A stretch of DNA of 64,000 bases from Bacteroidales bacterium (GCA_028282785.1 JANQHE010000061.1:195170-259169); one strand, 5' to 3'; positions 2,519 through 48,679 are shown, counted from the stretch's first letter. The notes: generated by a model not told the origin, from the letters alone. Program-made: numbers and translations.

Positions 2519-2606
2519 TTAAAAAGTTGCATTTTATTGTTAAGTATTTTGTAATATTGTGCATTAATAAATTATAGAAAAATATAATAAAGGCTAAAGA
2601 ATTGTT

Positions 2607-3578
2607 ATGTCAAAAATAGAAGCATTGAAACTGATCGGAAACACACCGATGATGCATTTAAAGACGCTTGACCCTAAACCGGGTGTAGAGATATATGCAA
2701 AGCTCGAGTTTATGAATCCTACAGGAAGTTATAAAGACCGGATTATTCAATATATGGTTCAAAAAGGTCTTGATGCAGGTAAGATCAATAAGAATACAAC
2801 ACTTGTTGAGGGAAGTTCAGGTAATACAGGAGCTTCAGTTGCTATGGTTGCTTCGAGCATGGGACTAAAATCAATTGTTTTTGTTCCGGATAAATGCAGT
2901 GATGAAAAGGTTGCTATCATTAAATCATACGGTGCAGAAGTGATCGTAAAGCCTGCTTCTGAATCATATGAAGATGCTGCAGCAAATAAAGCCAGTGAAA
3001 ATGAGAATTTTTACCATATCAACCAATATAACAGTCAGTTAAATCCTGAAGCTCATTATATGACTACAGGTAAAGAGATCTGGGATGATATGAACGGACA
3101 GATTGATGTATTTGTTGCTACAGCCTCTACAGGTGGAGCAATATCAGGGATTGGTAAACGATTAAAAGAAAATGATCCGAATATAAAAATTATCCTGGCA
3201 GATCCGGAAGGATCTGTTTATAAACCTTATTTTGACGGTAAAGAAGATTACTTGTCGTACAAGAAGCCATTTAAAGTAGAAGGAGCCGGTAAAGGTGTAC
3301 TTGTTGATGCTATGAACTTTGACATACTGAATGAAGCGATTTCATTTAATGATGAAAAAGCTATAGCTATGGTACTTCGTCTTGCTCGCGAAGAAGGCCT
3401 AATGGTAGGTGGTTCAAGTGGAGGTAATGTTTGGGCTGCTTTAGAAATTGCAAAGAAAATGGAAACTCCTGCTAAAATAGTAACTGTTATACCTGACAGC
3501 GGTTTTAAATATCTGAGCAAAATATTTAATCCCAAGTGGCTAAATGAAATTGGGCTTGGACATCTTGTGGTAGAATAA
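2607..3578 (+). CDS. PLP-dependent cysteine synthase / cystathionine beta-synthase family enzyme (copy 1 of a tandem pair)
   Basis: Carries the PLP-lysine motif NPTGSYKDR, the Asn-loop SSGNTGAS and the glycine-rich GSSGGN loop. Its 323 aa is typical of CysK/CysM-like enzymes. Confidence 0.85.
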   Translation: MSKIEALKLIGNTPMMHLKTLDPKPGVEIYAKLEFMNPTGSYKDRIIQYMVQKGLDAGKINKNTTLVEGSSGNTGASVAMVASSMGLKSIVFVPDKCSDEKVAIIKSYGAEVIVKPASESYEDAAANKASENENFYHINQYNSQLNPEAHYMTTGKEIWDDMNGQIDVFVATASTGGAISGIGKRLKENDPNIKIILADPEGSVYKPYFDGKEDYLSYKKPFKVEGAGKGVLVDAMNFDILNEAISFNDEKAIAMVLRLAREEGLMVGGSSGGNVWAALEIAKKMETPAKIVTVIPDSGFKYLSKIFNPKWLNEIGLGHLVVE

Positions 3579-3763
3579 CTACCCATAAGATAATATGCTA
3601 ATATTAATTCATATTTTTAAAATGAGCAGCTTGTTTGCCATGTCATTGGTATTTACTTGGATCTAACTAAAAACCAAGAAATCTTTTGCTGCTTAAAAAA
3701 GTTGCATTATCTTTCGAAGCATTCTTAAATTACAATAAACTTTAAAAAATATAAGGAATTATC

Positions 3764-4750
3764 ATGTCAAAAATAGAAGCATTGAAACTGATCGGAAACA
3801 CACCGATGGTACATTTAAAAACACTTGATCCTAAACCGGGTGTAGAGATATATGCAAAACTCGAGTTTATGAATCCTACAGGAAGTATAAAAGACCGAAT
3901 TATTCAATATATGGTTCAAAAAGGTCTTGATGCAGGTAAAATCAATGCTAATACAACACTTGTTGAGGGAAGTTCAGGTAATACAGCAGCTTCTGTTGCA
4001 ATGATTGCTTCGAGCATGGGGCTAAAATCAATTCTTTTTGTTCCTGATAAATGCAGTGAAGAGAAGATTGCAATAATTAAATCATATGGTGCAGAAGTGA
4101 TCGTAAAGTCTACTTCTTCTTCTGACCCTAACGATGAATATGGAGTTGCTGCCGGAATAAAAGCAAGTGAAAGTGAAGATTATTATTATATTGATCAATT
4201 TAACAGCATGTTAAATCCTGAAGCTCATTACATGACATTAGGTAAGGAAATAGTAGATGATATGAACGGAAAGATCGATGCATTTGTTGCTGCAGGATCT
4301 ACAGGGGGAACAATATCAGGTGTTGCCAAGCGCTTGAAAGAAAATGACCCAAATACAAAAATTATCCTGGCAGATCCGGAAGGGTCTATTAATAAGCCAT
4401 ATTTTGAGGGCAAAGAAGATTACATGTCATACAAGAAATCATTTGAAGTAGAAGGAGCAGGTAAAACCAAAATTGTTAAAACAATGGATTTTGACATACT
4501 GGATGAAGCAATCTCATTTAATGATGAAAATGCAATTGAAATGGTACTTCGTCTTGCACGCGATGAGGGTTTGATGGTTGGTGGTTCAGCCGGAGGTAAT
4601 GTTTGGGTTGCCTTAGAAGTTGCAAAGAGAATGGAAGCTCCTGCTAAAATTGTAACTGTTATACCTGACAGTGGATTTAAATATTTGAGCAAAATGTTTA
4701 ACTCTACATGGCTAAAAGAAAAAGGCTTTGGACACCTTATTGCTAATTAA
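3764..4750 (+). CDS. PLP-dependent cysteine synthase family enzyme (copy 2 of the tandem pair)
   Basis: Collinear with copy 1. The first ~45 nt after the ATG are identical. It has NPTGSIKDR, SSGNTAAS (G to A in the Asn-loop), and a short insertion near KSTSSSDPNDEYG. Confidence 0.85.
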   Translation: MSKIEALKLIGNTPMVHLKTLDPKPGVEIYAKLEFMNPTGSIKDRIIQYMVQKGLDAGKINANTTLVEGSSGNTAASVAMIASSMGLKSILFVPDKCSEEKIAIIKSYGAEVIVKSTSSSDPNDEYGVAAGIKASESEDYYYIDQFNSMLNPEAHYMTLGKEIVDDMNGKIDAFVAAGSTGGTISGVAKRLKENDPNTKIILADPEGSINKPYFEGKEDYMSYKKSFEVEGAGKTKIVKTMDFDILDEAISFNDENAIEMVLRLARDEGLMVGGSAGGNVWVALEVAKRMEAPAKIVTVIPDSGFKYLSKMFNSTWLKEKGFGHLIAN

Positions 4751-17503: not shown

Positions 17504-17564
17504 CATTGCGAATGAACTTTTAAAGCGAATGAAGCCTGCCAGCAGGCAGGCTTCATTCGCAATG
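17504..17564. terminator. Very strong hairpin between convergent genes, with an alternative outer pairing
   Basis: A 16-bp perfect stem (gcgaatgaagcctgcc / ggcaggcttcattcgc, 17525..17560) with a 4-nt loop. cattgcgaatga (17504..17515) can alternatively pair with tcattcgcaatg (17553..17564). It contains the CCTGCC/GGCAGG core seen elsewhere in the window. Confidence 0.6.
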
Positions 17565-36311: not shown

Positions 36312-37016
36312 TTATACAAACTTTTCTCGTTTCTGTAAATTAATTAATGCCCAAAGTAGAGAAATTACCGACCCGACAATTAACATTAAACGGTTCTGGC
36401 TTAAAATATTTTTCCAAACGGTTAAGCTAATATCACTTGGAACGTCAAAAGGGTTTAAGAATATGTTCCATTTACTGCTTCTTAAAGGTTCGTGCATAAT
36501 CCAAAATACCAGTCCTATGATAATCATTATTACTGCTGCACCGCTGGCATTTTTAACAAGGGTTGCAAATAAAAAAGACAAACAAGATAAAAATATTAAG
36601 GGATACATTACTTCATAAACCATTTTTAAAACCGGGATCCGAAGTACTGCAAATACTGTAAACCATGACATGGCAAATAAAATTATAACAGCCATTGCCA
36701 TACTAATTACGAAACGGATCAAATAGACTTTATAACGGTAATTTGGCACACCAAATACAATTTCTAACATCCTGGCATCTTTATCATTCTGTACATTAAA
36801 AATTACAGGATAAAATATTATTAATAAGCCGGGGAAAAGAATCACACCGTAAATATCATGTTCGGCAATTGATGCATTTTGAAATAGCATGATACCTATA
36901 ATGATTAAAAAGAATGCAATTGCTGCAATCAGGAAGTAAATGAACTTATTTGCAAATACAATCCTTAAATTGTATATCAAAATATCATATGCGAGTTTTA
37001 TTCGGTTCGATCTCAT
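36312..37016 (-). CDS. ABC-2-type membrane permease (6 TM helices)
   Basis: 234 aa and hydrophobic. Its start codon overlaps the stop of the RND-ABC fusion (TAATG), implying translational coupling. Confidence 0.65.
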   Translation of the reverse strand: MRSNRIKLAYDILIYNLRIVFANKFIYFLIAAIAFFLIIIGIMLFQNASIAEHDIYGVILFPGLLIIFYPVIFNVQNDKDARMLEIVFGVPNYRYKVYLIRFVISMAMAVIILFAMSWFTVFAVLRIPVLKMVYEVMYPLIFLSCLSFLFATLVKNASGAAVIMIIIGLVFWIMHEPLRSSKWNIFLNPFDVPSDISLTVWKNILSQNRLMLIVGSVISLLWALINLQKREKFV

Positions 37017-40000
37017 TACTTAACCATTTTTTCTTTAGTTAATAAATACAAATAGGCATCTTCCAGGTTAGCCTTTACAGGCTTTGCTTCCGGAGCTGGA
37101 ATTTTATCAGACAGGCAGCGGCAACGGATCATTTCACCATCTTTCATATGATGAATTATCGTAAATTCATCTTTTAATTTTTCGAACTTATCTTCCGTTA
37201 CATTTAGCATCCATACTTTTTCTTCTGCTAATTTCGCCATTTTTATAGGAGCTCCAAGGTATTTAACTTCTCCTTTTTTCATTACGGCAACCATATTACA
37301 CGAACTTGCTACATCTTCAATAATGTGAGTTGAGAAGATCACGATACGTTCACGGCTGAGTTCTACTAATAAATTCCTAAAACGGATCCGCTCGCGTGGG
37401 TCCAATCCGGCAGTTGGTTCATCTACGACAAGGATTTTTGGTAAATGAAGAAGAATCTGTGCAATCCCGATTCTCTGTTTCATTCCACCCGAGAAAGAGC
37501 CAATTTTTTCATCTTTATTATCATACATATGAACAGCATTCAAAACATACTCAACACGTTTTATCCTTTCTTCCTGGTTATAAAGTTTCTTTAAAATTCC
37601 CATATAATTAAGGAAGTCCCACGCAGTCATGTTTTCATACATTCCAAATTCCTGTGGAAGGTATCCGATCAAGCCTTGCAATTCTTCGCGTTTCTCTCGT
37701 ACATCGATATCGTTAATGGTAATTTGCCCATAACTTTGTTCAAGAATACCGCAAATGATCCTCATAAGCGTAGATTTCCCTGCACCATTTGGCCCCAGCA
37801 AGCCAAACATTCCGTTTTTAATATCAACAGATACTCCTTTAAGTGCTTTAAATGGTACTTTCTTTTTGCCTATTACAGGAATAACCAAAACAAATTTATA
37901 GAACCCCTTTCTTAATCCTTTAAATTTACCTTTTAAGCGGTTTACGTCAACCTTTTTCCTGTACAGGTTGTCAGATGTAACTTTTATAAGCACTAGGAAA
38001 TACCATAAGGCACCCATTGGGATTACTAAGCCTAATAACTCATACTTTTTAAAGAAAAGGAAAAGAGCAAGAGCAGGAAAGGCCCAAAAAAATAACCGGG
38101 ATACGAAAAGTATCAACAAGCTTAAAAGTTTGAATTTCTTTTCTGATTTTAGATTTCGTGCATATTTTTCAACTGGCACAAAGAAATAAGCAGTTAAAAT
38201 GTAAAGGAAAATTGGAAGTATAAAATACCAGAGTCCACTTTCAAGATGGAAATAGATGAAATACACAATAAATCCTATCAATGGAATTTGCCAGATAAGT
38301 TGGCTAAAGTCTTTGATAGTTGTGAATTCATGCTCAATTCCTAACCTTTTTCGGATATTAACTCCGGATTTCCATTCACGCACGAAACGGCTATCCCAGT
38401 CGTATATCTTTACAAGATTTCTAACCTTTATATGTAATGAGTCATCTTCACCAATAAGTTTTTCCGAGGCTTTTCTTAAACTATTTTGTATAAAATAAAT
38501 GGTAGCAGGAACGATTATGATCAACCCGATAAAATCGATAATTTGCCATACTCTTCGGTCAACTTCGGTAAATATAAAGTAGCTAACCGTTACCCAAATT
38601 GCAATTTGTATGATTTTGATATATAACTTCTGGCTTTGCATCCATTTTAGGGATGATTGTAAGCCGGAATTCAGAGTTGGAATAAAAACCAATGTAAGCA
38701 ATGTACTTACAGTTAAGCCTCCGATAATAGTTATTGCAAATGGAACTCCAATTAAAGTAACATATTCGGCTTTGCCAAGCGCTAATGGAATTAGTGCAAT
38801 AATCGTAGTTATAGCTGTGATAAGAATCGGGCGCACACGCGCTAAGCCTGCCATCATTAACGCACGAGATTCGGAATAGCCCCTTCGGCGAAGTACCCTG
38901 GAATAATCAATGAGGATAATTCCATTATTGACGACAATACCAAGCAGTATCAATAACCCGGTTAACACATTTGTATTTAACAAGGATGTTCCGGTTAGTA
39001 TCAATAATACCAGTGAACCAATTGCAGCCATCGGAATGGAGAACATCATTACAACAGGAGTGGAGAATGATTCGAAAACAGATGATAAAATCATGTAGAT
39101 GAGTATAAATGCCATGAGTAACAGAAATGCGAATTCTCCCAGTTCATTTTCATCGTGCACAACCTCCAAAGCAATTCCTGATGAAAGGGTCATTCCTTCA
39201 ACTAACTCATCAATCTCTAATCGTGCAGCTTCGAGCAAATCTTTTTCATCCTGAACTTCATTAATGAATTGATAAATTACTTCAAGTTGTTTTTCCTGGT
39301 TGGTTCTTTTTATAGCAGATAACCCTTCGGTAAAATTAAATTTGCTTATTTCCTGCATTTCAAATTGAGAACCCTGGTTTCCTCTAACATTTAAGGTTTT
39401 TAGTTCTTTTACATTTCGTTCTTTTTGAGTATTATAACCCACTGTTTTTATAAGGATATCATATTCTTCGGTTCCTTGTTTGAACGTTACTCCACTTGAG
39501 AATTCGTGCTGGAAAGAATTTAATTCGGAAAGTACCGATGCAACCGGGATATCATATAATGCCATGAGCTGCTTATCAAAATTAAGCATTAACTCGGGAC
39601 GTTTATCAGGAACCCGAATATCGATATTTTCGACAGATGTAAGTTGACCCAGGTAATATTTAACATCATTTGCCTGGTTGAGCATTTTATCAAAATCCTG
39701 CCCTTTAATGATTACTTTTTCGCGTTGTGCTCCAATTCCCAGCATTCTTCCAAATTCATCATCATCATAACTATCTCCGCCAAAACGTCCACTGGCCGGA
39801 GGATCCCAGCTGAATTCCGCCGGGCTGAGTTCTTCAAGCCTCTCTATGATCTCATTTTTAATTTTGGGGATCGAGAAATTCCGGATTTTTTTATAATCAT
39901 CAACTAAAAATATGGTAAGCGTAGCTTCTTCTTCATAGATCTGGCTGAGAACATCTTTCTTTTCATCTAAATCTTCCAGTTTCTTTTCAGCTTCTGCAAC

Positions 40001-41725
40001 CAGAATATCGGTATTTTCCAATGTTGTTCCACTTGGCATGGTAACATAAAGGGTAACATCTTTTATTTCTGCCTCTTGGGTCGAAATAATGCTAACTCCC
40101 AAACTTATTAAAAGTGCTGCAAAAAATATGATCAAAGCACCAAGAATTGTCCTTCCGGGCTTACGCATACAGGTTTTAAGAAGCACCAGGTAAATTTGAA
40201 TTAACCTGTTATGAAGCGATATTCTTTCGAACCGGATTGGTTTATCCTGTTTTCTAAATTTTAAGAATGCATGTGTGATCATAGGTATTAACAACAAGGC
40301 AACTACCAAAGAAACAAGCAAGGTTGAAATGATAGAAACTCCGATATGCTTTCCAATTAAACCAATAAAGAAATCCGTTGAAAATACAAATGGCAGAAAA
40401 ACAGTTACGGTTGTTAAAGTTGCTGCAAAAATAGATCGCCATACTTCTTTAGTTCCTTGAATAACCGCCTGATCAGGGTGAACCTTTTTAGCTGCAAGCC
40501 GATAAATATTTTCCAAAACAACGACACTATTATCTAACAACATTCCTATGGCCAGGGCCATCCCCAGAAGTGTTAAACTGTTAATGGTTATTCCGGCAGC
40601 ATAAAAGAAATTAAAAGCTGTATAAACTGATATTGGAATAGCCAGAGCAATGGCAACAACCAGCCTGAAATTCTTTAAAAAGATCCAAAGGATGAAAATA
40701 GCAAGTAAGCCTCCGAGAAGTGCCAGTTGAATAATAGAATCAATGTTCTTTTCCATGGTATCAGCGTCATTTCGTTGAATTACAAGCTCAATATCTTTTG
40801 TTTCAAATTCCTTATTCAGCTCTTTAATTTGGCCTTTCACCGCATTTGAGAGTGCTATTATATTAGCTTGTGAATCCTTTGTAATTGCTATGGTAACAGC
40901 TTCTTTTCCATTAACCCGGCTGTAAGAATCTTGCTCTTTTACTCCATAATGGATTTCAGCAATATCCTTTAATCTAATTTTACCTTGTTTTTTTACCACA
41001 ACATTATGAATATCCTGAATATCATCAAATTCAGAAATTACATTCACAAAGTGCAATTGGTTGTTGTTTGTTACCTTACCTGCAAAGGTCCTTGATTTAC
41101 TATTGTTACTTAATGCGGTCCTGACATCAGCAGGGGAAATCCCGTAACTATCACAAATATCCTGGTGTAATAGAACTTCTATCGATTTTTCCCTTCCTCC
41201 GAATACTTCTGCATTGGCAATTCCATCAATATTTTTTATTTTATTGATGATTTCCTGGTCAGTAATTTGTCTTACCCGGTCGATACCTCCGCCACCTCTA
41301 ACCTGGAGGGTCATAAACATGTTGTTTAATTGCTCAAGGTCGAATTTGAAAGTTTGAACCTGGAATTCTTCAGGCAATGTAGTTTTTACTTCATCTATTT
41401 TCTCAACCAATTTGAGGTAGGCAAACTTTAGATCGGTGTTTTTTTCGTAAGAAATCTGAATGGACCCCGATTGTTGCCCTGCAGTTGATTCAATCTTTTC
41501 AATTCCCTTTAGCGTTCCAATTGCACCTTCCAAGGGTATAATAGCCTGGTTTTCCATGTATTTTGGATCAACTTCCAGAGGCGAAGCAACCTGGACAAAT
41601 AGCATGGGGAATGTTGCATTTGGGTAAAGTTCAACAGCGAGCTGCTTATAGGATATATAACCAAGCATGGTTAATCCTGTAAACAACATGGCAATGAGTA
41701 CTTTTCTTTTTATAATGAAATTCAT
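37016..41725 (-). CDS. RND (AcrB-type) efflux permease fused to extra TM helices and an ABC ATPase domain
   Basis: A single 1569-aa ORF. Residues 1 to ~1018 are RND (paralog of 42254..45337). Residues 1287-1569 carry Walker A GPNGAGKST, signature FSGGMKQR, Walker B ILVVDEPTAGLD and an H-loop STH, and are a paralog of 52139..53029. Confidence 0.8.
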   Translation of the reverse strand: MNFIIKRKVLIAMLFTGLTMLGYISYKQLAVELYPNATFPMLFVQVASPLEVDPKYMENQAIIPLEGAIGTLKGIEKIESTAGQQSGSIQISYEKNTDLKFAYLKLVEKIDEVKTTLPEEFQVQTFKFDLEQLNNMFMTLQVRGGGGIDRVRQITDQEIINKIKNIDGIANAEVFGGREKSIEVLLHQDICDSYGISPADVRTALSNNSKSRTFAGKVTNNNQLHFVNVISEFDDIQDIHNVVVKKQGKIRLKDIAEIHYGVKEQDSYSRVNGKEAVTIAITKDSQANIIALSNAVKGQIKELNKEFETKDIELVIQRNDADTMEKNIDSIIQLALLGGLLAIFILWIFLKNFRLVVAIALAIPISVYTAFNFFYAAGITINSLTLLGMALAIGMLLDNSVVVLENIYRLAAKKVHPDQAVIQGTKEVWRSIFAATLTTVTVFLPFVFSTDFFIGLIGKHIGVSIISTLLVSLVVALLLIPMITHAFLKFRKQDKPIRFERISLHNRLIQIYLVLLKTCMRKPGRTILGALIIFFAALLISLGVSIISTQEAEIKDVTLYVTMPSGTTLENTDILVAEAEKKLEDLDEKKDVLSQIYEEEATLTIFLVDDYKKIRNFSIPKIKNEIIERLEELSPAEFSWDPPASGRFGGDSYDDDEFGRMLGIGAQREKVIIKGQDFDKMLNQANDVKYYLGQLTSVENIDIRVPDKRPELMLNFDKQLMALYDIPVASVLSELNSFQHEFSSGVTFKQGTEEYDILIKTVGYNTQKERNVKELKTLNVRGNQGSQFEMQEISKFNFTEGLSAIKRTNQEKQLEVIYQFINEVQDEKDLLEAARLEIDELVEGMTLSSGIALEVVHDENELGEFAFLLLMAFILIYMILSSVFESFSTPVVMMFSIPMAAIGSLVLLILTGTSLLNTNVLTGLLILLGIVVNNGIILIDYSRVLRRRGYSESRALMMAGLARVRPILITAITTIIALIPLALGKAEYVTLIGVPFAITIIGGLTVSTLLTLVFIPTLNSGLQSSLKWMQSQKLYIKIIQIAIWVTVSYFIFTEVDRRVWQIIDFIGLIIIVPATIYFIQNSLRKASEKLIGEDDSLHIKVRNLVKIYDWDSRFVREWKSGVNIRKRLGIEHEFTTIKDFSQLIWQIPLIGFIVYFIYFHLESGLWYFILPIFLYILTAYFFVPVEKYARNLKSEKKFKLLSLLILFVSRLFFWAFPALALFLFFKKYELLGLVIPMGALWYFLVLIKVTSDNLYRKKVDVNRLKGKFKGLRKGFYKFVLVIPVIGKKKVPFKALKGVSVDIKNGMFGLLGPNGAGKSTLMRIICGILEQSYGQITINDIDVREKREELQGLIGYLPQEFGMYENMTAWDFLNYMGILKKLYNQEERIKRVEYVLNAVHMYDNKDEKIGSFSGGMKQRIGIAQILLHLPKILVVDEPTAGLDPRERIRFRNLLVELSRERIVIFSTHIIEDVASSCNMVAVMKKGEVKYLGAPIKMAKLAEEKVWMLNVTEDKFEKLKDEFTIIHHMKDGEMIRCRCLSDKIPAPEAKPVKANLEDAYLYLLTKEKMVK

Positions 41726-41734
41726 TTTTTAATT

Positions 41735-41785
41735 TTCTCGCAGAGCCGCAAACCTGCCTGCCGTGAGGCAGGGACGCAAAGCTCT
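41735..41785 (-). repeat. Family-A flanking repeat, downstream copy
   Basis: cgcaaacctgcctgccgtgaggcagggacgcaaag. A 34-nt core is shared with 42213..42253, with 3 mismatches. It contains a 6-bp hairpin (cctgcc/ggcagg) with a tetraloop. Confidence 0.8.
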
Positions 41786-41787
41786 TA

Positions 41788-42165
41788 TTATAAATTATTC
41801 ACTATTCTTTTAATTCCATCTTTAATGAGTTTTTCATTAAAGTTTATTAATAAACCTAATTTTAATCCTGTAATTCTTAAGTAGGTTAATAATTGCTTGG
41901 GGTGAACAGGGGCAATTATTTCAACTGATTTTAGTTCTATTATTACTTTGTTTTCTACAACTAAATCAGCTCTAAAACCTATTTCCATTTTTCTATCCTT
42001 CCATATAACAGGAATTGCTTTTTGCCTCTCAACTTTTAAGCCTTGTTCTAATAATTCGTAATACAATATTTCTTCATAAACAGATTCTAATAAACCTGGT
42101 CCGAGCTGTACATGAATATTGTAACAGGTATTAATGATTATTTTTGAGAGTTCGTTTTCTGTCAT
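41788..42165 (-). CDS. GxxExxY family protein (PD-(D/E)XK-like small protein)
   Basis: 125 aa with the motif GPGLLESVY, plus ...DLVVENKVIIELK.... Confidence 0.8.
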   Translation of the reverse strand: MTENELSKIIINTCYNIHVQLGPGLLESVYEEILYYELLEQGLKVERQKAIPVIWKDRKMEIGFRADLVVENKVIIELKSVEIIAPVHPKQLLTYLRITGLKLGLLINFNEKLIKDGIKRIVNNL

Positions 42166-42212
42166 CGTTCTGGTTTTTCTTTGCGCCTTAGCTTTGTGAG
42201 ATTTTTATTTTT

Positions 42213-42253
42213 CACGCAAACCTGCCTGCCGACAGGCAGGGACGCCAAGAATA
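42213..42253 (-). repeat. Family-A flanking repeat, upstream copy
   Basis: cgcaaacctgcctgccgacaggcagggacgccaag, immediately after the stop of the RND gene. Confidence 0.8.
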
Positions 42254-45200
42254 TTAATTTTTATTAAATATCTTAATTTTTAAGCTATCAAATACATAAT
42301 ATACGCAAGGAATAACAACTAATGTTAGCAGGGTGGAAGTTACCAATCCTGCAATTACGGCAATTGCCATTGGTGAGCGTAAAGCTGCACTTTCACCGAT
42401 TCCAAATGTTAGTGGCAAGAGGGCTAAGATTGTTGTTAAACTTGTCATCATAATAGGGCGAATTCTGTTTTCACCGGCATTTATAATGGATTCTTTCAGT
42501 GATAATCCTTGTACTTTAAACTGATTTATAGCATCGACCAGAATAATGGAATCGTTTACGGCAATACCGGCAAGCATAATAATACCAATGTATGCCATAA
42601 TACTTAATGATTTTCCCAGGATAAGGAATGCCCAGATTGCTCCAACTCCTGCCAAAGGAATGGTTAATAAAATAGTAAGTGGGTGAATCATTGATTCAAA
42701 CTGGGACGCCATTACCATATAAACTAATATAATTGAAAGAATCAAAGCAAAACTCAAGCTTGACATTGCCTCCTGGCGTTTTTGTTCTTCGCCAACTATA
42801 CTAATTTGGTATTCCTGTGGTATATCAAGAGTGGCTATTTGTTCCCTTACACTTTCAACAGCCTGGTCAAATGGAACCGAGCGGTCAATATCTGCCATTA
42901 CTTTCCCAATTCTGTTCTGGTTTCTACGGAAAAGTTGCTTTGGCGAAGTAGATTTCTTTATAGTTGCCAACTCATACAATGGAACATTGTTATTACCATT
43001 TTTAAGAGTAATCGAATTGAATTCTGACAAACTCAGTTCAGGCAATTTTACGGTAATGTCGTTCATTTCGCCATCCTTTTCATACTTGCCTGCATCTTTT
43101 CCCATTAAAAGGTCCTTAAGCTGATTAATTATATCTTCAACACTCATATTGTAAATACCGGCTTTATAGCGGTCAATAACAACATCAATCTCCGGTGCGC
43201 CTTCTTCAATATTTGTTTTTATGTTAAGAAGTGCAGGAATTTCCTGAAGTTTAGCTTTTATTTCTGTTGATACCTGATCCAAAACAACCAAGTCTTTTCC
43301 TTTTACTTCTACCACTAGTGGAGCGTCATCAGTACCCATTATTGATTGCAAAGCGGTTTCATCTCTTATGATAGAGATTTCTGCGTCAGGAATTGTTCCC
43401 ATTAATTCTTCAACCGAAGAAATAATATATTGCGACTGCTCCAGATATTCATCTTTTAAGTGAATTTTTATGGTAGCTGTATTTTCATTTTGGAAAACCG
43501 ATTTTTCATTGGTTGAAGTACTTGAAGGGCCGATCTGGCTATAAACTATATTTAGTTTATCACCAAGCATTTCATTTAACATCGCTTCAATATTAGCAAC
43601 GGCCCCGGATGTCCTTTCCAGTTCGGTTCCTTCTTTAAGTTTTATTTCGATGCTAAATTCGCCGGCTCCACTTTTTGGAAGGTATTCTGATCCAACATAA
43701 GGAAAGATGTAAACCGTTAATGCTAATAAAAGAGTAGCAAAAACAATTACAAGCCCTTTTTTATCAAGGATCTTAGATAACAAATTACCATACCACCCAA
43801 TACGGACTGACTTGATTTTATTTTCTTTTTTGTGTTTTCTATATGCAAAATTGAAAAGCATTGGAATAACCAGAATTGCAACAAATAGTGATGCCAGCAA
43901 TGAGAATGCAACAGTCCAGGCCTGGTCTTTAAATAGTGCACCAGAAGCTCCATGCAAATAAACTATTGGCAAGAATACTACAATTGTGGTTAAGGTTGAA
44001 GCGACAATAGCACCACCAACTTCCGCAGTTCCGTGAATTGCAGCTTCTCGAACAGACATTCCCTGTTCCATATTCCGGAAGATATTTTCCATTACCACGA
44101 TTGCATTGTCAACCAGCATACCAGCCCCTAGGGCAAGCCCACCAAGGGTCATTATGTTTAAAGTGAGCCCATTAAAATACATTAAGTTGAAGGTAGCAAT
44201 AACTGAAATAGGTATTGCGAAACTGATGATCGCTGTTACCTTTAACCTTCTTAAGAAAATGAAAAGTACAAATACAGCTATTAAAATTCCTATTAATGCG
44301 GTTTCTTGTACTTCATCAATAGCAGTTTGAATAAATTTTCCCTGGTTTTGAACGATAATAAATTCATATCCGGGCAATGCTTTTTGAATAGATTCAAAAG
44401 ATTTAATTAAATCTTCAACCGCTTTTACAGTATTGAAACCGGTTTCTTTGTATATCGAAAGCCCAACGCATCGTTCACCATTAATTCGAACAACATTTTG
44501 AGGATCCTTATTCGTAAAACTTACGTTAGCAACATCTTTTAAGAAAATAGGGGTTTTTAAAACAGCATCCTGGTTTTGAGTTCCGTTTACCAGCTTATAG
44601 CTTAAAACTATATTCTCAATATCTTCAACTCTGCCTACAAGGCTTGAACCTTTAATGATATATTTTTTACCCATTTCAACAATAGTACCTCCGGAAACAT
44701 TTCTGTTCATGTTCTGGATTTCCTGTACAATCTGCCCTGTAGTTAAACCATAGGCATCTAATTTATATTGCTCGGTTTCAATCAATACTTCTTTTTCTTC
44801 GGTACCAGTAAGCGATACATCGGCAATGCCTTCTAACCTGATTAGTTCATTACGAATATAATTTTCACCAACTTTCCTCAACTCGTCCATGTCGGTAATC
44901 TCCGGATGTTTCATTCCTATGATCATTACCGGTGTCGCGTTAGGGTCGTGCTGTGTGATGGTGAATTCGTCGATATCCGAATTTTGGCTATATGCCGTTA
45001 GTGCTTTTTGAAGGTCCAAAAATGCTTCATCCATATCAGTTCCCCAGTTATACTCTACCGTTACCCGGGCAGAACCAACCATACATACTGAGGAAACCTG
45101 TGATACACCTTTTTGGCGAATAGATTGTGCTTCTATATCTTCTATAAACTGCTTTTCTAATTCTTCCGGTGGGCGTTCTCCTGCCTTAATTTCGACAAAT

Positions 45201-45337
45201 ATTCTGGGGGCATTCATATCGGGAAACAGGTCAACACTTAACCTTCCGAATGAAATGTATCCCAATAGAATAATTGCAATAACAATCATCGAAACCGTTA
45301 CAGGGTTATTAACCGAAAATTGTGTAATTTTTTTCAT
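42254..45337 (-). CDS. RND (AcrB/HAE1-type) efflux permease
   Basis: 1027 aa with the typical 12-TM/two-loop layout and motifs (GLALGAGMLVDNAIVVMENI, AGIAVNDSIILVD). Confidence 0.92.
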   Translation of the reverse strand: MKKITQFSVNNPVTVSMIVIAIILLGYISFGRLSVDLFPDMNAPRIFVEIKAGERPPEELEKQFIEDIEAQSIRQKGVSQVSSVCMVGSARVTVEYNWGTDMDEAFLDLQKALTAYSQNSDIDEFTITQHDPNATPVMIIGMKHPEITDMDELRKVGENYIRNELIRLEGIADVSLTGTEEKEVLIETEQYKLDAYGLTTGQIVQEIQNMNRNVSGGTIVEMGKKYIIKGSSLVGRVEDIENIVLSYKLVNGTQNQDAVLKTPIFLKDVANVSFTNKDPQNVVRINGERCVGLSIYKETGFNTVKAVEDLIKSFESIQKALPGYEFIIVQNQGKFIQTAIDEVQETALIGILIAVFVLFIFLRRLKVTAIISFAIPISVIATFNLMYFNGLTLNIMTLGGLALGAGMLVDNAIVVMENIFRNMEQGMSVREAAIHGTAEVGGAIVASTLTTIVVFLPIVYLHGASGALFKDQAWTVAFSLLASLFVAILVIPMLFNFAYRKHKKENKIKSVRIGWYGNLLSKILDKKGLVIVFATLLLALTVYIFPYVGSEYLPKSGAGEFSIEIKLKEGTELERTSGAVANIEAMLNEMLGDKLNIVYSQIGPSSTSTNEKSVFQNENTATIKIHLKDEYLEQSQYIISSVEELMGTIPDAEISIIRDETALQSIMGTDDAPLVVEVKGKDLVVLDQVSTEIKAKLQEIPALLNIKTNIEEGAPEIDVVIDRYKAGIYNMSVEDIINQLKDLLMGKDAGKYEKDGEMNDITVKLPELSLSEFNSITLKNGNNNVPLYELATIKKSTSPKQLFRRNQNRIGKVMADIDRSVPFDQAVESVREQIATLDIPQEYQISIVGEEQKRQEAMSSLSFALILSIILVYMVMASQFESMIHPLTILLTIPLAGVGAIWAFLILGKSLSIMAYIGIIMLAGIAVNDSIILVDAINQFKVQGLSLKESIINAGENRIRPIMMTSLTTILALLPLTFGIGESAALRSPMAIAVIAGLVTSTLLTLVVIPCVYYVFDSLKIKIFNKN

Positions 45338-45435
45338 AATTGTAAATTTCTCTCAAAGACACAATCCTGATAGTTATCGGGAGGCAAAGAATATTTAATT
45401 TTCACTATTTTTCTCATTTCTTCGTTTATTGCCAT
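45334..45435 (-). pseudogene. Deletion scar of a third GxxExxY cassette (33-codon residual ORF)
   Basis: The 5' region and first codons (ttcgtttattgccatcgtg; MAINEEMRKIV) parallel those of 41788..42165 (ttcgttttctgtcatcgtt; MTENELSKII). They run straight into a family-A-like element (45347..45393). The stop overlaps the RND ATG (ATGA). Confidence 0.5.
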
Positions 45436-45477
45436 CGTGATTAATATTCTTTTGTCTTTGTACTTTAATCTTTTATC

Positions 45478-46527
45478 TTACTTGATAACTTTAACTTTTG
45501 AGCGGTTGCGAAGTGTTTCGAATCCTTTTATAACTAAACGATCGTTTTTCTCCAAGCCAGAGATTATTTGTACTTCATCAGGATTTTCTAACCCGAAAGT
45601 TACAATACGTTCCTGAGCTAATCCTTTATCAACCACAAATACGGTACTTCCTCTTTGTTTAGCGAGAATCACATCTTTAGGTATTACGATTGTACTATCA
45701 ACCGATGCTACTATGATTTCGCCTTTTGCAAACATTCCCGGACGCAATAATAAACCGGAATTAGAAACGTCAATAACCGTTTTAAATGATCTGGTATCTG
45801 CATCAATAGCCGGAGATATTTGGGCTACTTTTCCAACCAATGTATCTTCAGGAATGGTGTAATTCGTAATTTTTACTTTTTGCCCAACTTTTACAAAACT
45901 TAGGTCCTTTTCCGCCAGGCTAATTTCCATATATAATTTACTATAATCCATTAACTTAAACATTAGTGAATTGGCAACAACTCTTGTACCCGGTGTGTAA
46001 TATGGCAAATCTACTATTACACCTGAAAAAGGGGCCTTAATATGCATCTTTTCCAAACGGATTAGGGCATCTTTATAACTATAATCGGCATTTATATAAT
46101 TAATTTCTGCATTTTTAAGTTCACTCAAAGTAACTCCACCTTTTTCGTAAAGAGATTGTTGTTTTTCGAAAGTTTGTTTCGTGATCTCTAGGTTTAGCTT
46201 TAATGAAAGAATCTTGATGTTATTTTCATATTCATCATCCTTCAAATAGATAATTTTATCGCCTTCATTAACCTTATCGCCTAAAGCATATTTTTTACCG
46301 GTAGTTGGATTGATCATAAGGTTATATTCACCGGCAATTTCGGATTTAAAGTTTATTTCTTTTACCGGATTAACTGTACCGGTAGTTTCAATAAATTTTT
46401 CAATTGACTGTAGTTTCAAATCCTGTACTGAAACCGGAACAGATATATCTTTATTTAAATCCTTTTCTTCGTTATTACACGATGCAAACATGATGATTGC
46501 GGCTAAGATTATAACTATTTTTCTCAT
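45478..46527 (-). CDS. Efflux membrane fusion protein (HlyD/AcrA family), lipoprotein
   Basis: Lipobox MFASC after the Met at 46527 (preferred over the track start at 46581), then coiled-coil and beta-barrel regions typical of MFPs. Confidence 0.85.
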   Translation of the reverse strand: MRKIVIILAAIIMFASCNNEEKDLNKDISVPVSVQDLKLQSIEKFIETTGTVNPVKEINFKSEIAGEYNLMINPTTGKKYALGDKVNEGDKIIYLKDDEYENNIKILSLKLNLEITKQTFEKQQSLYEKGGVTLSELKNAEINYINADYSYKDALIRLEKMHIKAPFSGVIVDLPYYTPGTRVVANSLMFKLMDYSKLYMEISLAEKDLSFVKVGQKVKITNYTIPEDTLVGKVAQISPAIDADTRSFKTVIDVSNSGLLLRPGMFAKGEIIVASVDSTIVIPKDVILAKQRGSTVFVVDKGLAQERIVTFGLENPDEVQIISGLEKNDRLVIKGFETLRNRSKVKVIK

Positions 46528-46552
46528 TGTGTATTTAATTTTTATTGTTTTC

Positions 46553-46610
46553 TTTTTTTGAACGCAGATGCCACGGATCAATATATTGAGCGCGGATAAC
46601 CGCTGATTTT
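46553..46610 (-). repeat. Family-B flanking repeat, downstream copy
   Basis: tgaacgcagatgccacggatcaatatattgagcgcggataaccgctgatttt. It has 5 mismatches over 52 nt against 47021..47080. Confidence 0.85.
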
Positions 46611-47010
46611 AACTATTTATCGCTTTAATATTTTTTCTTTTATTTTCAAATACTTTTCTTACAAATTCAGGCTTTTTGCCAAAATTTAGAAGTAAACCAA
46701 CTTCTTTGTCAGTTGCTCGTAAGTAGTTTAATAATTGCCATTCAAACTCTTCAACAATATATTCTGTAGCTTTTAGTTCAAGAATTATCAAATCATTTAC
46801 AACCAAATCTGCATAATATTCGCCTACTTCGACTCCCTTGTAATGTACTTTTATCTGTTTTTGAGCTTCTACATCAAAACCTTGATTTTTGAGTTCTAAA
46901 TACAGTGAATTTTGGTATACTTTTTCAAGAAATCCATATCCTAATTCATTGTAAACATTGTAAAATGTTTTAAGAATTTTATCAGTCAGTTCTTTATGTA
47001 TTAGGTTCAT
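46609..47010 (-). CDS. GxxExxY family protein (second paralog)
   Basis: Motif GYGFLEKVY, plus ...DLVVNDLIILELK.... The ATG at 47010 is preferred over the track start at 47037. Confidence 0.8.
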   Translation of the reverse strand: MNLIHKELTDKILKTFYNVYNELGYGFLEKVYQNSLYLELKNQGFDVEAQKQIKVHYKGVEVGEYYADLVVNDLIILELKATEYIVEEFEWQLLNYLRATDKEVGLLLNFGKKPEFVRKVFENKRKNIKAINS

Positions 47011-47020
47011 TACTTTTATA

Positions 47021-47080
47021 TTTTTTTTTGAATGCAAATGCCGCGGATCAATAAATTGAACGCGGATAACCGCTGATTTT
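47021..47080 (-). repeat. Family-B flanking repeat, upstream copy
   Basis: tgaatgcaaatgccgcggatcaataaattgaacgcggataaccgctgatttt, 10 nt upstream of the GxxExxY start codon. Confidence 0.85.
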
Positions 47081-47155
47081 TATCGTCCTGATTTTACATT
47101 TTGTTTTATATGTTGTGTTCATCTTATTTTCTAATCTGTTTGATTATCGTTCTAA

Positions 47156-48679
47156 TTAATTCGTATCGGATGATCTTATATTGTTTTGTAATTCCTGCGG
47201 AACAAATGATCTTCCATTTTCAAAATCCCAGAGCGATTGTATTTTCATGTTAAGCAACTCCAGTTTATAGTTTATGAGAGCATTTGCCAGATTCATTTTT
47301 TTCTGAGATAACTGGTTTTGGTACCTTTCCAGGTCGATACTGGTTAGATCTCCATTTTTGTACCTCTCCAGGTTTATATCATATGTTAATTGTGCATTTT
47401 TTTCGTTTTGTTCGGCAATTTTAATTTGCGAGTTTAAATTTTGAAGGTTTCTGAACACCTGCCTGATATTGATAACAATATTATCTTCTAAGGTTTTCAG
47501 GTCTAGTTCTCTGGATTCAATTGCAAGCTCTGCAGCACGTATTCTGGCTTTTCTTTCACCCCAGTCGAATACCGGAATGGAGAATGTAATTCCGACTTGA
47601 GGGCTTCGCGTAGGTTTTTCATAAACATTTGCAAAGTCTTCATTATTACCCATAATTCCAACCGAAAGATCCACATCACCTCTAAATTCATTTGTAGCAG
47701 AAGTTTCGATTAAGTCAAACTGAGCATTGTTCAAATCAATTTTTCTTTGTGATATTTCTAATCTTTGAGATAGCCCATTTTCTATAGCCTTTTCTAAATC
47801 AACAATAACGGGAGTATATTGTATATCTGTTTCAATTTCTACTTCCTCATATAATGAAATACCTATTAAACGCTTGAATTGGTCTTTTGAATTTTCTAGA
47901 TCAACCTTTGCATTTTCAAGGTTTGACTGGCTGGTTGCATAGTTCAATTCGCCTTGTAATAATTCCTCCTGTGCTGATAACCCTGCTTCAACTTTACTTT
48001 TTATAATTTCAAAACTTATTTTCTGGTTTTCAAATTCTTCTTCAGCAATTTGAACAGCCATTTGTTTTTGGTAAATTGCATAAAAAGCCTGGGTTACTTG
48101 CTGTTCAATACTAAGCATTTGGATTGAATAGGAGAGCGTAGCATTTTCAAGAGACAATTGCTGTCTTTCCAAATTCATTTTGGTTTTATTATATGTAAAT
48201 AAAGGTTGATTATAGCTTAAATATAAATTATTATTAAATCCCTCGTAGGTATTCGTAGTTTTTGTCGGGTTTAACGGATCAGTGAAATTATCAAACGTTT
48301 CAGTTGAGGTTGATTTATATTCGAAATCATTTCTTAATGATAAAGTACCATCTGTCCATTTAATAGGTTGTGAAATGACCAATCCGGCATTTGATAGTGT
48401 ATTTTCTGATGTGTACCACTGTGAATAATATTCGTCGTAAGTTTCACTATTTGAATACCGAATCGGTGTAACATTCAATGAAAAATGAGATTTAAGCATG
48501 GCCAATTGGGCATTTAAATACTCCCGGTTTTGTTCCATGGTTAGCCTGGATTGCTTAATATCAGGGCTATTTTCGAGAGCTGTACTCATGGCATCCTTAA
48601 GGGTTAATACCATTTGGCCTTTTGTTATCAAACCACTTATTATTAGTGTGCTTGTTATAAATATTTTTATTCTTAACAT
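47156..48679 (-). CDS. TolC-like outer membrane efflux protein
   Basis: 507 aa with a signal peptide and two repeats of the OEP pattern (LTLKDAMSTALENSPDIKQ...; coiled-coil rich). Confidence 0.85.
   Translation of the reverse strand: MLRIKIFITSTLIISGLITKGQMVLTLKDAMSTALENSPDIKQSRLTMEQNREYLNAQLAMLKSHFSLNVTPIRYSNSETYDEYYSQWYTSENTLSNAGLVISQPIKWTDGTLSLRNDFEYKSTSTETFDNFTDPLNPTKTTNTYEGFNNNLYLSYNQPLFTYNKTKMNLERQQLSLENATLSYSIQMLSIEQQVTQAFYAIYQKQMAVQIAEEEFENQKISFEIIKSKVEAGLSAQEELLQGELNYATSQSNLENAKVDLENSKDQFKRLIGISLYEEVEIETDIQYTPVIVDLEKAIENGLSQRLEISQRKIDLNNAQFDLIETSATNEFRGDVDLSVGIMGNNEDFANVYEKPTRSPQVGITFSIPVFDWGERKARIRAAELAIESRELDLKTLEDNIVINIRQVFRNLQNLNSQIKIAEQNEKNAQLTYDINLERYKNGDLTSIDLERYQNQLSQKKMNLANALINYKLELLNMKIQSLWDFENGRSFVPQELQNNIRSSDTN

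Follow-up and report, generated by a model that had tools for sequence, protein, structure and literature searches.

The ends of class II transposons (the hexamers of Ac/Ds, the 12-mers of En/Spm, the end sites of Tn7 and Mu) carry copies of a short motif in both orientations that bind the element's own protein. The open reading frame (ORF)-bearing intervening sequences (IVSs) of 23S rRNA, known from Leptospira and Coxiella, are ~0.43–0.45 kb in length, encode one protein of ~120 amino acids (S23p, PF05635), end in inverted repeats of ~25–30 nt and are sporadically distributed, being inserted in sense orientation into transcribed regions (PMC4990558). The Coxiella IVS, 428–444 nt in length, closes in a 28-bp terminal stem that is cut by RNase III (PMC4990558). 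Here we analyse 64,000 nucleotides from a Bacteroidales bacterium (GCA_028282785.1, JANQHE010000061.1:195170-259169; the window), in which a gene of the GxxExxY family, GxxExxY-1, lies inside an efflux operon between short repeats that we call arms. We conclude that gene and arms are probably one copy of a widespread cassette of ~0.45 kb, the product of which would be a nuclease that recognizes the arms of its own cassette.

In size, single ORF, sporadic distribution and sense-orientation insertion into transcribed regions, and at part of the loci in terminal inverted repeats, the cassette resembles the 23S rRNA IVS, and in one relative a PF05635 gene with analogous arms occupies the identical operon junction. 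It differs in its cargo, which has a predicted PD-(D/E)XK fold (PF13366) and not a four-helix bundle; in its site, a messenger RNA spacer between protein-coding genes and not helix 9, 25 or 45 of 23S rRNA; and in its arms, which are octamer arrays, direct as well as inverted, without the wobble signature of an RNA stem. As in the subterminal arrays of class II transposons, the cassette ends hold several copies of one short motif in both orientations, although the cassette is far smaller and encodes a different class of enzyme.

A reading made earlier from the sequence alone (the sequence-only reading) placed a 125-amino-acid GxxExxY gene at the junction between the genes for an RND permease and an RND–ABC fusion; the ORF (41788..42165) and its profile matches agree with this, and all three genes are on the minus strand. 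GxxExxY-1 matches TIGR04256 (GxxExxY) over its full length (E = 4.2e-44, 149.6 bits, curated cut-off 35) and PF13366 (PDDEXK_3; E = 2.8e-41, 141 bits, curated cut-off 22); PF13366 is its sole Pfam match, and it does not qualify as an HUH/Y1 transposase. The motif G-x-x-E-x-x-Y is present as G24-L-L-E27-S-V-Y30. Across 148 family members G24, E27 and Y30 are 100% conserved, and E27, D67, E77 and K79 are invariant; D67 and E77-L-K79 form the catalytic D...(D/E)-x-K pattern on strands E64-70 and E74-79 of an AlphaFold2 model with a predicted local distance difference test score of 88. Foldseek places this model near Cas4 SSO0001 (template modelling score of 0.59), LHK-Exo, lambda exonuclease and Bax1 (E ~1e-3), and a sequence search of the PDB gave no homolog. 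The confident model is consistent with a minimal PD-(D/E)XK fold, and GxxExxY-1 is a putative nuclease. Membership of a defence system was considered and set aside: PADLOC gave only a weak Cas4b match (E = 0.005) and PHROGs a weak CRISPR-associated match.

Close homologs of GxxExxY-1 number in the thousands, and proteins that are 85–90% identical are encoded at unrelated loci, for example in a Chlorobi metagenome-assembled genome (MAG) with genes for a HepT toxin and an acetyltransferase on either side (L008, where L-numbers label the fetched relative loci that were compared with the window). Other homologs lie between two giant ORFs (L009) and between genes for a SpoU methylase and a cupin (L011). 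The flanks at these three loci follow a common grammar of CTTnGCGn octamers in tandem that terminate in GAGA or GTGA (the L form), with a complementary form, TCWCGCnAAG... (R); an arm of this type, type A, comprises about three tandem octamers, TCW-CGCAAAG-N-CGCAAAG-N-CGCAAAG or the complement. Because the same grammar flanks homologs at unrelated loci and in other phyla, the repeats travel with the gene, which speaks against the target duplication or att sites from which the sequence-only reading had derived them.

We scanned one genome per species for a first set of 80 loci, 72 of which were usable, from Bacteroidota, Planctomycetota, Acidobacteriota, Verrucomicrobiota, Cyanobacteria, Desulfobacterota, Chloroflexota and other phyla. 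Octamer arrays lay ≤150 nt from the gene at 60 of the 72 loci (on both sides at 42), compared with 17 of 1,698 control windows from the same loci (1%). Inverted-repeat flanks (score ≥14) were present at 58% of the 72 loci (displaced controls, 0%; cross-locus controls, 12%), and direct-repeat flanks (score ≥16) at 21%, against 1% of displaced, 5% of cross-locus and 0% of shuffled controls. Inverted arms often come within 1–10 nt of the ATG and stop codon. Among 133 arms, 89 have three units; the period is 8 (173 intervals) or 9 (54), and the outer edge is TCW, with its T and C conserved at 83–86%.

The operon in the window contains a second family member, GxxExxY-2, which is 48% identical to GxxExxY-1, and a second set comprised 80 metagenomic relatives of this protein (68–82% identical). 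Their genes are flanked by arrays of a different unit, ATC[C/A]GCG(T) and (A)CGC[G/T]GAT (type B), in direct (43%) or inverted (49%) arrangement, with one or the other in 52 of 63. A-type arrays occur at 63 of 72 loci of the first set and 0 of 66 of the second, B-type arrays at 2 of 72 and 40 of 66. The dialect follows the protein subfamily and not the host, because both dialects sit in one operon. Cassettes are co-oriented with the upstream neighbouring gene in 41 of 50 and 20 of 21 cases, which fits a reliance on read-through transcription. The pattern of a gene with its cognate repeat arms is robust and apparently new to the literature: full-text searches for the link between gene and arms turned up no description of it, although descriptions of the families in databases may still mention it.

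Recent horizontal spread was considered as a source of the 85–90% cross-phylum protein identity and rejected, as synonymous sites are saturated (proportion of differing synonymous sites (pS) of 0.73–0.83 between homologs at unrelated loci); the identity therefore reflects constraint. Some family members are 270–295 amino acids in length and have two tandem GxxExxY domains (for example, P0241-P0244). Some loci carry multi-arm arrays, such as L-R-gene-L-R...L-R followed by the 5′ start of another copy (L011:3900-4750) and R,R..L-gene-R..L,L (L181:5712-6500), which suggests several rounds of insertion and decay at the same spot. No other small gene family was found beside stray arms in the fetched loci, and a search of plasmids for multiple copies gave 7 matches, all of them single-copy.

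In the window, the cassette that carries GxxExxY-1 (cassette A) consists of the following features.

41788..42165, minus strand: GxxExxY-1, cargo of cassette A, 125 amino acids, predicted PD-(D/E)XK fold (PF13366 and TIGR04256).
41736..41781, minus strand: downstream arm, L orientation, three octamer units, containing the repeat copy 41747-41781 (matches the family arm consensus).
41753..41772, minus strand: 20-nt palindromic insertion (cctgcc..ggcagg) in the downstream arm (alignment of relatives, and fold).
42179..42201, minus strand: upstream arm, R orientation, degenerate, sense strand TCTCACAAAGCTAAGGCGCAAAG (inverted partner of the downstream arm).
42212..42249, minus strand: extra upstream arm, L orientation, containing the repeat copy 42215-42249, sense strand CTTGGCGTC[hairpin]TTTGCGTGA.
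42221..42240, minus strand: 20-nt palindromic insertion in the extra upstream arm, at the same within-octamer position as that of the downstream arm.

On the sense strand the downstream arm reads CTTTGCGTC[hairpin]TTTGCGGCTCTGCGAGA. The extra upstream arm starts 4 nt past the RND stop codon, and the R arm, an intact form of which is retained in L001 (TCTCACGCAAAGGCGCCAAGCCGCAAAG), ends 13 nt short of the ATG of GxxExxY-1; the R arm and the downstream L arm of the window are partial partners, broken by the 20-nt hairpin. The layout is L(hairpin)-R-gene-L(hairpin). The sequence-only reading saw the two L copies and missed the inverted partner arm at 42179-42201, the second GxxExxY gene and the fact that the hairpin makes up just the inner 20 nt of a larger repeat unit. 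The direct repeats that it described are real (41747-41781 and 42215-42249, 35 nt, 32 of 35 identical, in one orientation and 468 nt apart), but its outer limits, 41735 and 42253, were slightly generous because similarity stops at 35 nt. Its repeat pattern has exactly 2 matches in the window against 0.00 expected (100 shuffles), which rules out a chance origin. As it had also stated, each copy forms a hairpin, with a 7–8-bp CCUGCC(U)/GGCAGG stem; the 52-nt hairpin context folds at -23 kcal/mol (z -2.0) and the 88-nt upstream spacer at -26.5 kcal/mol (z -3.1). An Rfam scan of 41500-47300 returned nothing relevant, and scans detected neither terminator-like sites at the arms nor an excess of promoter-like ones. 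A general genome repeat of the repetitive extragenic palindrome (REP) type was dismissed, as octamer arrays are absent from the rest of the window.

The surrounding operon and its genes were assigned from Pfam and NCBIfam matches, and the whole also from synteny with L001-L006, L175-L177, L181 and L182.

37016..48679, minus strand: host operon, whole.
47156-48679, minus strand: outer-membrane factor (OMP) gene.
45478-46527, minus strand: membrane-fusion protein (MFP) gene.
42254..45337, minus strand: RND permease, 1,027 amino acids.
37016..41725, minus strand: RND–ABC fusion, 1,569 amino acids.

The last of these genes joins an RND permease to an ABC ATPase domain, an unusual efflux architecture that is kept at 68–99% amino acid identity in the 120 best-scoring homologs (including Marinifilum, Labilibaculum, Ancylomarina and related MAGs), always with a separate RND permease upstream. 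Through this rare fusion we traced orthologous operons in Marinifilaceae-like Bacteroidales, and the RND/RND–ABC junctions are given below with the amino acid identity of the fusion to that of the window.

L006, 86%: cassette present.
L175, 84%: 23 nt, no arm.
L181, 83%: cassette with composite arms (the R,R..L-gene-R..L,L array).
L182, 79%: 128 nt, no arm.
L176, 77%: PF05635 '23S rRNA IVS protein' gene with its own arms.
L177 (Marinifilum fragile), 70%: 26 nt, no arm.

That the gene is an inserted cassette, as had been proposed, is borne out by the gene-less junctions of L175, L182 and L177 and by the unrelated PF05635 gene in L176. The proposed landing site fared differently. The idea that a foreign gene entered a pre-existing host intergenic hairpin, the repeats being a target-site duplication or hybrid att sites, draws on the direct repeats that bracket both GxxExxY genes and on the gene-less OMP/MFP junction of L001 and L003, which has one copy, identical to the downstream copy. 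However, neither hairpin nor repeat was found at the gene-less RND/RND–ABC junctions of L175, L177 and L182, where a target-site duplication would have a single repeat copy; the hairpin is in neither arm of L001 or L006; in other phyla the same repeat grammar accompanies homologs whose loci are unrelated; the lone copy of L001 is part of a decayed cassette; and a Pfam scan of 48 ORFs of the window found no integrase or transposase. Insertion at a hairpin is already contradicted for cassette A, and we consider it very improbable overall. The gene-less junctions with a single repeat that the sequence-only reading had predicted exist for cassette B, described below, and not for cassette A. As the ancestral RND/RND–ABC junction had neither gene nor arms, cassette A was inserted together with its arms.

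That insertion is old. Each of the seven closer relatives has GxxExxY-1 at this junction, the least similar of them with 78% nucleotide identity in the RND gene, whereas several more distant orthologs lack it, so that the old vertical inheritance named by the sequence-only reading as a refutation of insertion applies only in part. Compared with L006, GxxExxY-1 has a pS of 0.67 (0.71–0.79 for neighbouring genes), a proportion of differing nonsynonymous sites (pN) of 0.042 (0.076–0.108) and a pN/pS of 0.06 (0.11–0.15). Because seven relatives share the junction and the synonymous divergence matches that of the operon, the copy is old and vertically inherited: cassette A is an ancient resident under strong purifying selection that co-diverges with its operon, and not a recent insertion. 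The arms, too, are conserved across a divergence that saturates synonymous sites; 24 of 26 positions of the downstream arm agree with L006, as counted by eye and ignoring the hairpin, with synonymous sites near saturation.

The hairpin is younger than the arms. It is present in both arms of the window, L002 and L005, and absent from L001, L006 and L007; the direct repeat of L001 and of the outgroup L006 lacks it and reads CTT[G/T]GCGTC[T/A]TTGCGGCTCTGCGAGA. Because both copies lack it in L001 and L006, it is a later 20-nt insertion into the arms and not a landing site, and the direct repeat of cassette A is two same-orientation copies of an octamer arm, not a duplicated host hairpin. L002 has the palindrome in both arms and L001 in neither, although the two are 99% identical; this distribution therefore points to gene conversion between the arms, site-specific insertion on two occasions or allele exchange between strains. 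The window has 4 hairpins with a CCTGCC/GGCAGG stem, against 0.01 expected. The two outside the arms are at 17525-17560 and 33782-33819, and one of them is a perfect 36-nt palindrome between convergent genes; the four may represent a small genome-specific hairpin family that includes the 20-nt insert of the arms.

Cassette B, with GxxExxY-2, occupies the OMP/MFP junction of the same operon.

46609..47010, minus strand: GxxExxY-2, cargo of cassette B, 133 amino acids (PF13366, E = 4.9e-39).
46553..46610, minus strand: downstream arm, dialect B, four ATCnGyG units (repeat comparison).
47023..47080, minus strand: upstream arm, same orientation, 53/58 identical to the downstream copy.
47081..47155, minus strand: probable relic of an older, internally deleted cassette (alignment to the R-gene-L cassettes of L175 and L181).

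In dialect B the canonical downstream arm is of L type, and the 58-nt direct repeat (91% identical) is this arm; its copies are spaced 470 nt apart, against 468 nt in cassette A, with unrelated sequences, and in the window this cassette has direct arms only. The relic contains a degenerate R arm (47129-47155), ATGAAC (47117-47122) and then ~35 nt, and it aligns to the intact cassettes of L175 and L181 at the same junction with 20/23, 10/12 and 51/61 matches; the arm at 47023-47080 is the probable L arm of the relic. At this junction L175 and L181 have the canonical R-gene-L arrangement and the window, L002 and L005 have L-gene-L, whereas a single L arm without a gene is found in L001, L003 and L006; in L001 this arm is identical to the downstream arm of the window (58/58). 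Because the gene-less site aligns to R arm, ATG region and L arm, it is an internally deleted older cassette, and the junction in the window is relic, live gene and second L arm. In L006, a (AAT)n microsatellite of ~40 nt directly precedes the solitary dialect-B arm (L006:1585-1625).

L001, which lacks cassette B, and L002, which has it, are 99.0% identical in the RND gene. Presence or absence at one site among close relatives, as expected of homing, is thus a property of cassette B; cassette A is fixed in the same relatives. Between the window, L002 and L005 only 2 of 402 nt of GxxExxY-2 differ (99.5% identity), whereas the flanking genes differ by 4–7%; the low-divergence tract has the arms as its rough limits. 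The downstream arm is invariant, and the upstream arm differs at 6 of 58 positions between the window and L005. The near-identity of GxxExxY-2 could reflect recent exchange between strains or re-acquisition at an arm. Loss through recombination between the two arms explains the gene-less state of L001 equally well, and mismatch maps do not decide between gain and loss, as the strains are mosaic.

Three further kinds of mobile DNA share traits with these cassettes. Integron gene cassettes likewise have no promoter of their own (none was detected here) and an ORF co-oriented with incoming transcription; an imperfectly palindromic repeat lies beside the ORF, which appears bracketed by direct repeats, one of which is left after loss. 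Unlike integron cassettes, those described here come without attI or an array and, among the 48 ORFs scanned, without IntI, are single and scattered in operon spacers and always have one protein family as cargo; their arms, CTTTGCG...GCGAGA and ATCAGCG...GCGTTCAAAAAAA, do not contain the GTTRRRY core of attC. The IS200/IS605 elements and REP sequences with their associated transposases (REP/RAYT) also combine a small gene with short hairpin-forming repeats specific to the protein subfamily, and gene-less copies exist. The cassette protein, however, is not an HUH/Y1 transposase, and compared with REP/RAYT the gene-less arms are rare, against hundreds of dispersed copies, and built of tandem octamers, against a single REP hairpin. 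Free-standing homing endonuclease genes (phage seg and mob; the PD-(D/E)XK enzyme I-Ssp6803I) are small nuclease genes in spacers between conserved genes, as the genes for the putative nucleases are here, and cassette B also resembles them in being present or absent among close relatives; homing, however, leaves no flanking repeats, and cassette A is long fixed and constrained. No short target-site duplication was noted at the cassettes, although no systematic search was made.

The likeness to rRNA IVSs extends to PF05635 itself. Of four genes for PF05635 four-helix bundles that we examined, three share the layout with tandem-unit arms but use other unit sequences; the fourth, on a Calothrix plasmid, has only a short repeat ~150 nt upstream. 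The cassette of L176 (5990-6470) has GGGCAGAG-type inverted arms at the same RND/RND–ABC junction as cassette A, the gene on a Nostoc plasmid has arms of (GGGGAAAA)n and (CTTTTCCC)n, and that on a Pseudanabaena plasmid, between cas6 and cas4, has (AAAAGCT)x15 and (AAAAGCC)x10; the armed PF05635 genes outside L176 lie at L179:230-920 and L180:330-800. These arms tie the cassettes to the classic ORF-bearing rRNA IVSs.

In a rival reading the arms act in RNA: they would pair in the operon transcript into a long stem around the ORF, and RNase III, by cutting this stem as in the 23S rRNA IVSs, would free the cassette RNA and separate the cistrons. The ~450-nt size, single small ORF and 25–40-nt terminal inverted repeats match the Coxiella IVS (PMC4990558), L176 has a gene for an IVS protein at the RND/RND–ABC junction, cassettes run in the direction of their neighbours and the arms form stable local hairpins. 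The mismatches between arms say otherwise: on the sense strand G.U pairs number 130 and A.C pairs 201, and 476 of 807 mismatches are transversions. This wobble test, negative as it shows no G.U excess, led us to reject an RNA stem under selection; in the dialect-B arms (L095-L174) the sense strand has 135 A.C and 70 G.U mismatches, an asymmetry between the strands. In addition, direct-only arms such as those of cassette B cannot enclose an ORF, and octamer periodicity and an outer TCW edge have no obvious rationale in RNA. We regard an IVS that acts in RNA as quite unlikely. Occurrence in both orientations, the asymmetric conserved edge, the tracking of protein subfamily and the lack of a G.U excess argue for the arms as putative arrays of protein-binding sites in double-stranded DNA (dsDNA) rather than an RNA stem.

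On the evidence of sequence comparison, the most economical reading is that the nuclease recognizes its own arms. The cassette would be a small GxxExxY cargo of PD-(D/E)XK fold with short octamer arrays that have a conserved outer TCW edge and are placed a few to a few tens of nucleotides from the start and stop codons; the canonical inverted partner arm would be the one between the upstream direct copy and the ATG, and the gene may lack its own promoter, as none was detected. The arrays would be dsDNA binding or cleavage sites for the nuclease of the cassette, which may mediate, or may once have mediated, insertion or retention. Arms in the same orientation could have arisen by tandem insertion followed by decay or by arm-by-arm recombination, and would permit loss of the gene, and possibly its regain, through recombination between arms.

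Several observations weigh against this account. The link between nuclease and arms is a correlation, namely co-inheritance, and two subfamilies were sampled, of ~19,600 clusters at 50% identity. Recent transposition is unsupported because homologs at unrelated loci are saturated at synonymous sites. Solo arms are rare, and the window has none elsewhere. The polymorphism of cassette B may be a simple deletion between repeats, because the 'empty' site is a decayed cassette, and the arms may serve as a generic vehicle or as a device for expression or insulation, because the unrelated PF05635 genes share the architecture. Cassette A has been kept in place since before a split with a pS of ~0.67 and is more constrained than its neighbours, and long constraint of this kind is more in keeping with a gene that is addictive or of use to the host than with an active transposon.

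This last point leads to a resident gene that serves the host or is addictive (in defence or repair, or as a toxin-like nuclease), the arms being operators or insulators without a role in movement and the spread being due to ordinary horizontal transfer and recombination. Purifying selection stronger than that on the flanking efflux genes (pN/pS of 0.02–0.06), long vertical inheritance at this junction, conserved arms and a dialect that goes with the protein subfamily, in the manner of operator–repressor pairs, all suit such a gene. We nevertheless consider it unlikely, given the sharp boundaries of the arms and the unrelated intergenic sites that cassettes occupy across many phyla, the patchy occupancy of orthologous operons with a different cargo family at one junction, the dispensability of the gene in L001, L003 and L006, which lack cassette B, and the weak Cas4b match as the only result from PADLOC.

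Elsewhere in the window, a RhuM-family gene at 28765-29783 is split into two ORFs (28765-29367 and 29400-29783), and nearby are a gene for an AbiEii-type nucleotidyltransferase toxin and an intact RhuM gene (30749-31318 and 33952-34998); the region looks like a small defence or mobile islet. At 2580-4750, tandem paralogous genes for pyridoxal phosphate-dependent enzymes (2607-3578 and 3764-4750) lie within a tandem duplication of ~1.16 kb, the copies of which are 81–90% identical.

The package of gene and arms appears to be a type of insertable gene cassette that has so far escaped notice. The PF13366/TIGR04256 family is very large (the same ~19,600 clusters) and has no known function, and the only survey found that covers it lists the function as 'unknown' and notes 'multiple transfers' (PMC3424549). 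With subfamily-specific arms, insertion into operon spacers and an architecture in common with PF05635, the family is now a testable system, and the arms account for the N-terminal extensions that are often mis-annotated on GxxExxY genes and for the spurious small ORFs beside them. More tentatively, GxxExxY proteins may be the nucleases of a class, not recognized before, of minimal (~450 bp) autonomous mobile or self-retaining elements that end in subfamily-specific octamer arrays, and 23S rRNA IVSs with PF05635 may belong to the same super-class of 'armed ORF cassettes', which would colonize transcribed operon and rRNA spacers across most bacterial phyla. If the nuclease binds and cuts its own arms, the finding would establish a new minimal element, mobile or self-retaining, and would also provide a mechanism for the movement of rRNA IVSs, a question that has stood since the 1990s.

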